A stretch of 64,000 nt of DNA from Escherichia phage ECO103 4-12-1: sequence record OR844650; one strand, 5' to 3'. Of the stretch, positions 60,240-61,121 are shown piece by piece. The position numbers were made by a program, and so were the translations under genes. Under the pieces are notes generated by a model, which was given only the letters and a program-made list of their open reading frames with translations, made no database searches and had not been told where the DNA came from. Position 1 is the first letter of the stretch. Each line of letters begins with the position of its first letter.

Positions 60240-60592
60240 TCTTGAATTCCTAAATTGAATTTGTATTCTTGATTAATACTTGCATTGGGTTTATGCAAAG
60301 CAGCATACTCTTTCATTTCATTTTGTATTGCAATAACTTCTTCAAATGTACACAAGTACTTCTTATCAAATACTAATGATTCTTGGAATAGTTCTGCGGT
60401 ATCCATTAATGTATAGTCCGGCATATCTTGGTGTGGATACTGTAATGAACTGTAATCAATGAATGTAAATTTACCCTGAGTGTAATGAATATACTCATTT
60501 GCACTGTGCATTAAATCACCTTTGTTTAAATTACAAAAGTACTGATAACTGTGCTTGAAAGTATGTACTGATATTAAAAAATCAAATTCCAT
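60236..60592 (-). CDS. FQxS-motif family protein, subfamily B
   Basis: Core DYTLMDTAELFQESLVFDKKYLCTFEEVIAIQNEMK. Confidence 0.55.
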   Translation of the reverse strand: MEFDFLISVHTFKHSYQYFCNLNKGDLMHSANEYIHYTQGKFTFIDYSSLQYPHQDMPDYTLMDTAELFQESLVFDKKYLCTFEEVIAIQNEMKEYAALHKPNASINQEYKFNLGIQE

Positions 60593-60593
60593 C
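60513..60593. repeat. 81-bp direct repeat, copy 1 (79/81 identical to 61042..61121)
   Basis: aaatcacctttgtttaaattacaaaagtactgataactgtgctt(g/a)aaag(t/a)atgtactgatattaaaaaatcaaattccatc. Confidence 0.7.
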
Positions 60594-60963
60594 AGTACTC
60601 AACCTCTACATAAATAGATTCAGGAAACTTAGTCATATAATCTTCTGGATAGTTCTGCATTACTTTGATCATTTCTGCCTGTGTAGCACGGACGTATTCA
60701 ATTGGTGCTCCTGGTAAATTCCAGACAGTACTTTCCTGAAAGAATTCCTCTTCTGACAGTACTGTCAGATTTACAAAATCATTACGGTAATTTTTTGAAT
60801 CATCATATGTGAAGATTTTAAAAGACCCATTTTCATATAGTACAAGAACAAAATGGGAGAATTTTTGTAATGCACCACCAAGGCTTTCCACGACCGCATG
60901 ATTCAGTGTACAGATGACCTCTCTTTTCCTCATACCGAATTGAATTCTAATTTCTTTTTTCAT
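60592..60963 (-). CDS. FQxS-motif family protein
   Basis: Motif EEEFFQESTVWN; GGAG before ATG. Confidence 0.55.
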   Translation of the reverse strand: MKKEIRIQFGMRKREVICTLNHAVVESLGGALQKFSHFVLVLYENGSFKIFTYDDSKNYRNDFVNLTVLSEEEFFQESTVWNLPGAPIEYVRATQAEMIKVMQNYPEDYMTKFPESIYVEVEY

Positions 60964-61121
60964 AAAATCTCCTTCAGATTAGTACTGAATTTGTACAGAA
61001 TATTAGAACTGTATACAGCCTCTGTATCTGTATCCATAATCAAATCACCTTTGTTTAAATTACAAAAGTACTGATAACTGTGCTTAAAAGAATGTACTGA
61101 TATTAAAAAATCAAATTCCAT
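60962..61121 (-). pseudogene. truncated duplicate of the 5' end of the 60236..60592 paralog (52-codon ORF)
   Basis: First 27 codons (MEFDFLISVHSFKHSYQYFCNLNKGDL) near-identical to the start of 60236..60592, then divergence to a stop; sits on an 81-bp direct repeat. Confidence 0.4.
61042..61121. repeat. 81-bp direct repeat, copy 2
   Basis: Differs from copy 1 at two positions; covers the 5' end of the truncated paralog fragment. Confidence 0.7.

Follow-up and report, generated by a model that had tools for sequence, protein, structure and literature searches.

Within the genome segment of Escherichia phage ECO103 4-12-1 considered here (sequence record OR844650; 64,000 nucleotides (nt), hereafter the window), two near-identical copies of a short coding sequence lie in direct orientation at the 5′ end of a small gene, B, and upstream of it, with another small gene, X, enclosed between them. 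The arrangement raises the question of how the repeat was formed and where the enclosed gene came from. The window is from an Asteriusvirus jumbo coliphage of the 121Q/PBECO4/G17 group, with best matches 96–99% identical. A preliminary description had read the locus as a very recent segmental duplication of a roughly 360-bp unit that left behind a truncated gene copy. Our analysis leads to a different account, in which the repeat is very probably the footprint of a single ectopic insertion of a donor piece bearing X, later moved by recombination. The donor context, both joints, the single origin of the insertion and its presence or absence among relatives could be established by direct observation.

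A direct repeat enclosing a gene from another locus

The reading frames named in the preliminary description all exist, on the minus strand, and are transcribed in the order C, a short open reading frame (ORF), X, B and A, each being joined to the next, from C through A, by an ATGA stop/start overlap. Genes C (61121..61498, 125 residues), B (60236..60592, 118 residues) and A (59880..60239, 119 residues) give full-length hidden Markov model matches to phrog_15629 (E 3e-56 to 8e-60). They were rightly recognized as paralogs, and they are old ones, pairwise 38–41% identical in amino acids and 58–60% in nucleotides. Gene X (60592..60963, 123 residues) matches a related but separate family, phrog_13866, over its full length (E 6e-41), and shares about 30% identity with B. 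The short ORF (60960..61121) is 53 codons long, one more than first counted, matches phrog_15629 at positions 1–39 only, and is without the invariant FQ motif of the family. It had been thought to end where the Shine-Dalgarno sequence of X begins; in fact its stop overlaps the X ATG, and that sequence, AAGGAG (60969-60974), is contained within it, 5 nt ahead of the ATG.

The repeat was reported by a repeat-finding tool as 60510-60594 against 61039-61123 (85 nt, 96%, spacing 529), and direct comparison delimited the truly duplicated segment to 82 nt, 60513-60594 against 61042-61123, with 80 of 82 positions identical and mismatches at 60557/61086 and 60562/61091. The upstream copy (61042..61123, minus strand) consists of the gene C TGA with its overlapping ATG and the first 80 nt of B-type coding sequence, and provides codons 1–27 of the short ORF, a duplicate of the first 27 codons of B, as had been noted. 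The downstream copy (60513..60594, minus strand) consists of the X TGA overlapping the B ATG and the first 80 nt of intact B. The longest exact stretch measures 44 nt, whereas 100 shuffles of the 4.5-kb region gave 12.4 nt on average and never more than 16. No exact repeat in the window is longer, and the 82-nt repeat is also the longest near-identical one. Self-comparison of the locus, proposed as a check for similarity extending past the repeat, showed near-identity stopping at 82 nt, beyond which the copies drop to background identity on either side.

The sequence between the copies (60595..61041, minus strand; 447 nt here, 510 nt in phage 121Q) matches the 3′ end of an A4_364-like gene together with X, as they occur at the native X locus of A4-type phages. 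Insert and one repeat copy together make up a 529-bp unit that is present or absent as a whole among relatives. Phage A4 has an X of 95% nucleotide identity but nothing of the repeat or of A, B or C, and in this phage a full-length gene of 192 residues, A4_364, precedes X. In 121Q, a 74-residue chimeric ORF has a tail 78% identical to the C-terminal 51 residues of A4_364 (E 4e-24); the 53-residue ORF of the window has the same tail minus 21 codons (E 2e-6 against A4_364). Because the tail matches A4_364, the supposed truncated copy is a chimera, in which codons 1–27 of B continue in frame into the last 26 codons of an unrelated gene.

A4 is collinear with the window though strongly diverged, A4_354-356 corresponding to 59870..58464, A4_359 to 55948..56484, A4_365 (X) to 54072..54434 at 28% identity, and A4_366 to 53385..53726 at 41% identity. 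Since this collinearity places A4_365 at 54072..54434, the native X position is about 6.5 kb downstream of the C–B site. The resident gene at that position in the window, X0 (54072..54434, minus strand, 120 residues), is 26–28% identical to X, and the window carries both this divergent X0 and an ectopic, A4-type X. Starting from five X clusters found in a search of 5.8 billion proteins, the native arrangement was traced in four further independent sequences, namely three Logan assemblies (SRR23924988, SRR33746294, and SRR2034070) and one 358-kb NCBI contig (GCA_012813795.2), with the gene order 182 residues, 192/198 residues, X, 112 residues, and 178 residues. An ENA metagenome contig showed the 121Q-type ectopic arrangement; in IMG/VR only 121Q itself matched, and JGI metagenome contigs gave no matches. 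Across nine carrier phages and five native-context sequences, X is 92–100% identical. In one of the Logan assemblies (SRR33746294, L021, 3212-3583), the X in native context is itself a mosaic, its 5′ half being of the window (ectopic) type, with the 3-nt GCC insertion, and its 3′ half of the A4 type, which suggests ongoing exchange by recombination between native and ectopic X alleles.

The two joints and a proposed route of insertion

To read the joints, five native copies were aligned with five ectopic ones. Homology begins at GATTT and ends at TGATGGA throughout, with nothing alignable outside. The left joint (61042..61046, minus strand) is a 5-nt microhomology, GATTT, shared by B codons 26–27 and the 364-like gene and encoding Asp-Leu in both. 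On the sense strand, with hyphens marking the boundaries, B reads AAAGGTGATTT-AATGCAC, the donor reads CAACAGGATTT-GATTATGGAT, and the product reads AAAGGTGATTTGATTATGGAT. The right joint (60588..60594, minus strand) is a 7-nt microhomology, TGATGGA, between the overlap of the X stop with the next start in the donor (GAGTAC-TGATGGA-TTTAG) and the overlap of the C stop with the B start in the recipient (GGGGAAGTG-TGATGGA-ATTTG). Both joints are identical in all nine carrier phages, so the insertion occurred once. Behind the left joint, the remnant of the 364-like gene 3′ end (60964..61041, minus strand, 78 nt) holds the Shine-Dalgarno sequence of X. What sets the window form apart from 121Q and from all native copies is the in-frame loss of 63 nt near 61001/61002, between imperfect 11-nt repeats TAAT(G/A)TTCTGT; the full 141-nt tail is retained in 121Q and in the ENA contig. 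As a separate observation, the upstream repeat copies of 121Q (L003, about 3120-3145) and of the ENA contig (L020) contain a 25-nt patch in which about 10 positions match no sampled B allele.

Intact donor and intact recipient contexts have both been sampled, in five donor sequences and eight empty-site genomes, and together with the joints they suggest the following course of events. A 510-nt piece of an A4-type locus, comprising the last 141 nt of the 364-like gene (with the X ribosome-binding site) and X, would have been copied and placed about 6.5 kb upstream, in a PBECO4-type C–B–A array. GATTT, in B codons 26–27, would have been the point of entry into the donor, and TGATGGA, a stop/start overlap also found ahead of B, the point of departure from it. 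The return point would lie 82 nt upstream of the exit point, so that the stop/start overlap and 26.7 codons of B were written twice; this stagger accounts both for the 82 nt occurring twice and for B being intact. The process may have been a single replicative event in which microhomology guided two template switches, or a pair of staggered break-and-join events, and the setting may have been a mixed infection between phages or a single genome. Thereafter the two 82-nt copies, identical to the conserved B 5′ end of cassette-free relatives, would have served as portable homology, by which the 529-bp unit could be placed on or removed from at least three flank haplotypes through ordinary homologous recombination. 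A later in-frame loss of 63 nt, between the 11-nt imperfect repeats, would have shortened the chimeric ORF of the window form.

Carriers, empty sites and competing explanations

The exact 529-bp unit is present in the window, G17, 121Q, phAPEC6, Turkey3, slurp01, BF17, and Sharanji, and, judged from full-length single-piece matches, also in SHEFM2K and CRJP21. It is absent from E9.1, PBECO4, SD-1_S14, WPEC3, ph0011, UB, UE-S1, and CMSTMSU; in such empty sites, found in about 18 relatives overall, C abuts B directly with a single repeat copy. Translated searches (tblastn) found X at 91% identity or more in ten phages only, the 19 other records holding just a 26–34% identical paralog 5–7 kb away. 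Phages with these same joints, starting with 121Q, come from at least seven countries, and there are two forms of the cassette, which differ by about 3% and the 63-nt deletion. The two mismatches between the repeat copies (A/T and C/T on the sense strand) are standing alleles of the B 5′ end in empty-site genomes: the T..T allele is found in PBECO4, E9.1, and SD-1, and the A..C allele in UB and WPEC3. Nearly all carriers have T..T in the upstream copy; in 121Q these positions fall within the diverged patch. Because both mismatches are standing alleles, they cannot date the insertion; with the geographic spread of the joints and the two cassette forms also in view, a very recent event is not supported.

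Movement of the unit between backbones is apparent from its surroundings. Among carriers, the cassette is 96.6–100% identical while their flanks are only 82–86% alike, and each carrier has an empty-site counterpart with 98.7–99.8% identical flanks, the exception being the 121Q left flank (95.1%). In Turkey3, the sequence up to about 60500 matches the empty-site phage WPEC3 at about 100% identity; from 60502 to 61069 it agrees fully (100%) with the window, and past 61069 it agrees just as fully (100%) with CMSTMSU, another empty-site phage. The upstream repeat copy of Turkey3 has single-nucleotide polymorphisms (SNPs) of the CMSTMSU type. These identity switches and SNPs place the breakpoints of the mosaic inside the two repeat copies. 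The preliminary expectation that recombination between the repeats would reshuffle the locus is thus supported by Turkey3 and by the presence/absence of the 529-bp unit, although for near-identical backbones gain is indistinguishable from precise loss.

The rival that survives best concerns these later dynamics and is compatible with the proposed origin. It holds that the filled state came first in most lineages and that the present pattern arose mainly by recurrent precise deletion between the 82-nt copies. The empty site is exactly the product expected of a repeat-by-repeat deletion, and the flanks of E9.1 and SD-1 are 99.5–99.8% identical to those of carriers. A check of the SNPs in the single repeat copy, made to see whether E9.1-type sites are secondary deletions, showed both allele types circulating among empty genomes. 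Deletion alone does not explain a cassette that is 100% identical between Turkey3 and G17/phAPEC6 on flanks of 82–86% identity, nor the local CMSTMSU-type SNPs of the Turkey3 upstream copy, and the most diverged backbones (ph0011, UE-S1, CMSTMSU, and WPEC3) are all empty. We therefore consider recurrent deletion as the main cause a tentative possibility, rather doubtful on balance.

Several observations count against the account of a single ectopic insertion followed by recombination, or limit its detail. In a 24-nt patch just inside the left joint (61014-61031), about nine positions differ between all ectopic copies and all five native ones; either the true donor allele may be unsampled or the tail may have decayed. 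The native haplotype is rare, being represented by one phage record and four metagenome or assembly contigs. Template switching and break-and-join, between genomes or within one, give the same product. In the near-identical backbones (window and G17 against E9.1 and SD-1), gain and precise loss would look alike. Finally, X matched no Pfam family at E ≤ 1, and its predicted structure gave no convincing structural match.

A functional explanation would have selection maintain both copies because the 82 nt act in cis, as a leader RNA, promoter or recombination site; it draws on the conservation of the first 82 nt of B between diverged backbones, 92–99% as against 85–92% for the rest of B. The RNA folding z-scores are only -1.9 and -1.5, however, with no Rfam match, on which grounds the RNA-element reading was dropped; promoter-like and terminator-like sites scored at chance level, and a promoter or terminator reading was dropped likewise. 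In 121Q, moreover, the upstream copy has decayed to about 85%. Selection for a cis element is thus very unlikely to account for the repeat.

Even less can be said for the original proposal of a recent tandem duplication of a roughly 360-bp unit by unequal crossing-over, with a truncated second B. It rested on A, B, and C being tandem paralogs with 75–85% identical core stretches, and on the first 27 codons of B recurring in the upstream copy. Against it, near-identity ends after 82 nt on both sides, whereas A, B, and C share just 58–60% of their nucleotides; what follows in the short ORF corresponds to the 3′ end of A4_364 and not to B; and X belongs to another subfamily and has its own context elsewhere in five sequences. 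The copies do not lie head to tail, as the 447 nt of heterologous DNA between them match the A4-type locus, and only 82 nt were duplicated. We judge this explanation highly improbable.

An inserted gene flanked by a direct duplication of target sequence might also suggest a dedicated mobile element, either a transposon or insertion sequence with its target-site duplication or a homing-endonuclease cassette, and a homing-endonuclease-like gene is indeed gained or lost elsewhere in the window (35539..36324). The cassette ends are without terminal inverted repeats, for which reason the transposon reading was dropped, and neither X nor the chimeric ORF has a transposase, integrase or nuclease domain; X in particular matched no Pfam family at E ≤ 1, those of HNH, GIY-YIG and LAGLIDADG nucleases included. 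In addition, transposon target duplications are far shorter than 82 nt, and the insert drags along a fragment of a donor neighbour gene, as is typical of illegitimate recombination, so that a mobile element is hardly credible. An assembly artefact, hinted at by the Sharanji record being linearised within the upstream copy, is practically out of the question, since the same two-copy structure, with lineage-specific SNPs in each copy, recurs in nine phage genomes that were assembled independently and in one metagenome contig from ENA. The Sharanji record (OR545507) ends at the window equivalent of 61085, the end of the 44-nt exact stretch, with a terminal overlap of 77 nt; its assembly graph evidently broke at this repeat, which is a point at which assemblies of these genomes may break.

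Relation to known systems and the surrounding window

Illegitimate recombination at the level of microhomology is generally invoked for phage mosaicism (the Hendrix-type model, discussed in PMC2327257). Like the novel joints of that model, the present ones unite heterologous DNA at 5–7 nt of identity, carry a fragment of a neighbouring donor gene, distinguish relatives by presence or absence, and spread through homologous recombination in the flanks. Unlike them, they involve a donor that is not foreign but a divergent allele from another array position in a sister phage; donor and recipient are still sampled, so the event can be rebuilt base by base; and the staggered joints gave an unusually long duplication of 82 nt and preserved the recipient gene. 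The locus is a well-resolved but ordinary example of phage genome shuffling, its origin fitting this model, and current understanding of phage mosaicism is unchanged by it. Its value is that all three parties to an illegitimate recombination in a jumbo phage (donor, recipient, and product) are still sampled, which is rare and allows the joints to be read to the base. It illustrates one route by which a paralog array can grow, a divergent allele from a sister phage becoming an extra paralog at a new position while the recipient gene stays intact, with a by-product repeat that lets X move between backbones. For annotation, it implies that the 53-residue (or 74-residue) "hypothetical protein" in the carrier records checked is a fusion remnant. 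In the literature on Asteriusvirus paralogs and on the 121Q and PBECO4 genomes, no description of this locus was found.

A second point of comparison, for the later behaviour of the unit, is provided by the promoter-plus-stem-loop (PeSL) cassettes of T4-type phages. PeSLs are regulatory units made up of a sigma-70 early promoter and a terminator stem-loop and are repeated many times per genome; as short direct repeats they flank single non-essential ORFs in a hyperplastic region, where recombination between them explains gain and loss of genes between close relatives and might set free a mini-circle (Arbiol et al. 2010, PMC2839356; Comeau et al. 2014, PMC4122927). Common to both systems are direct repeats on either side of a single ORF, which some close relatives have and others lack. 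The X-cassette repeat, by contrast, is coding sequence, the 5′ end of a gene, occurring only twice and without promoter, terminator or stem-loop features, and is for this reason not a PeSL. A bolder proposal would make the 529-bp unit a self-contained, recombination-mobilised cassette (moving possibly by way of a mini-circle, as with PeSLs) that is sweeping through Asteriusvirus because X confers an advantage, for example against host defence, and would have the capture of ectopic alleles as the process that built the 28-member "FQ" array described below. We regard this as unlikely; if true, microhomology-guided capture from co-infecting relatives, and not tandem duplication in place, would be a general process of array building.

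Other known processes share parts of the pattern. Microhomology-mediated template switching of the fork stalling and template switching/microhomology-mediated break-induced replication (FoSTeS/MMBIR) type has been described for cellular genomes. It likewise involves two microhomology joints, a segment copied from a distance, and re-entry behind the exit point that duplicates the intervening sequence; here, by comparison, the process is deduced from its product only. Gene accordions, such as that of poxvirus K3L, amplify genes in tandem by unequal crossing-over. They resemble the present locus in their tandem-paralog array and in direct repeats that permit changes in copy number, but here no tandem unit was duplicated, the repetition being confined to 82 nt, and the added gene comes from a different locus. 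Morons of lambdoid phages are single extra genes inserted between two genes that are adjacent in relatives, with a promoter and terminator of their own. X likewise stands between genes adjacent in relatives, but it has no detected promoter or terminator of its own, is ATGA-linked into an operon, and is found in a lytic jumbo phage.

As to the expression and function of X, scans found no promoter-like or terminator-like signals above chance in the cassette. With its Shine-Dalgarno sequence lying in the co-transferred tail, X is probably expressed from a read-through transcript by means of this imported signal; the chimeric ORF is most likely a functionless by-product of the insertion. Searches of A, B, C, X, and their neighbours gave nothing meaningful in Pfam and only families of unknown function in PHROGs. 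The predicted model of X (predicted local distance difference test score 77) consists of a five-stranded sheet followed by helices.

The genes of the locus are part of a larger set. On the minus strand of the window, 41641-63716, there are 28 tandem paralogs of one small-protein superfamily (104–207 residues) with the motif EE-x-[LFY]-FQ-x-S, in which Phe-Gln is invariant. This FQ superfamily is restricted to Asteriusvirus-like phages, with 123 matching clusters among 1.84 billion representative proteins, and its structural relatives are uncharacterised RaK2/PBECO4 proteins only. Paralogs of phrog_9317 share exact repeats of 30–32 nt around an EEYYFQ motif, at 57675-57707, 58124-58158, and 59514-59549, which could be due to gene conversion or to strong constraint.

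A 48-kb comparison of the window with E9.1 showed about 98.5% identity and no more than three large indels, all on the minus strand; each of these is a single gene bounded by a short direct repeat. The first is a gene with a CapR/DUF723 zinc ribbon (35539..36324, 19-nt overlap), the second an extra FQ-family gene of 125 residues (about 53714-54068, gene 53705..54082, with a 6–7-nt direct repeat, AATTCA), and the third the X cassette (85-nt overlap). E9.1 lacks gene 53705..54082, whose place in the window is at the native X locus, immediately downstream of X0. The gene at 35539-36324 encodes 261 residues with a GIY-YIG-like C-terminal motif recognized by eye, lies between a Dam methyltransferase gene and the next gene, and is likewise absent from E9.1; it is probably a free-standing selfish or homing-type gene.

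Word counts over the whole window (1-64000) revealed a marked excess of the palindrome AGTACT, with 197 occurrences against 21 expected from base composition (9.2-fold); GTACTG and CAGTAC are over-represented 13.8-fold and 10.2-fold, and the commonest 8-mer, CAGTACTG, occurs 46 times. The AGTACT sites are evenly spread and occur in all three reading frames (81/45/60) as well as in intergenic DNA, so the excess is selected at the DNA level; no literature on it was found. One such site lies immediately at the right joint of the X cassette (GAGTACT-GATGGA). GCGC is absent (0 against 45 expected), GGCC is scarce (9 against 45), and GATC and CTAG are at about 0.45-fold, a pattern that looks like restriction-site avoidance.

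Upstream of gene C, a 196-nt intergenic region (61499-61694) contains GCGGGGGCGGGG followed by T6 (61550-61568) and a sigma-70-like site at 61682-61655. The region is 94% identical in phage A4, where the flanking genes on both sides are strongly diverged, and it may be a conserved regulatory region.

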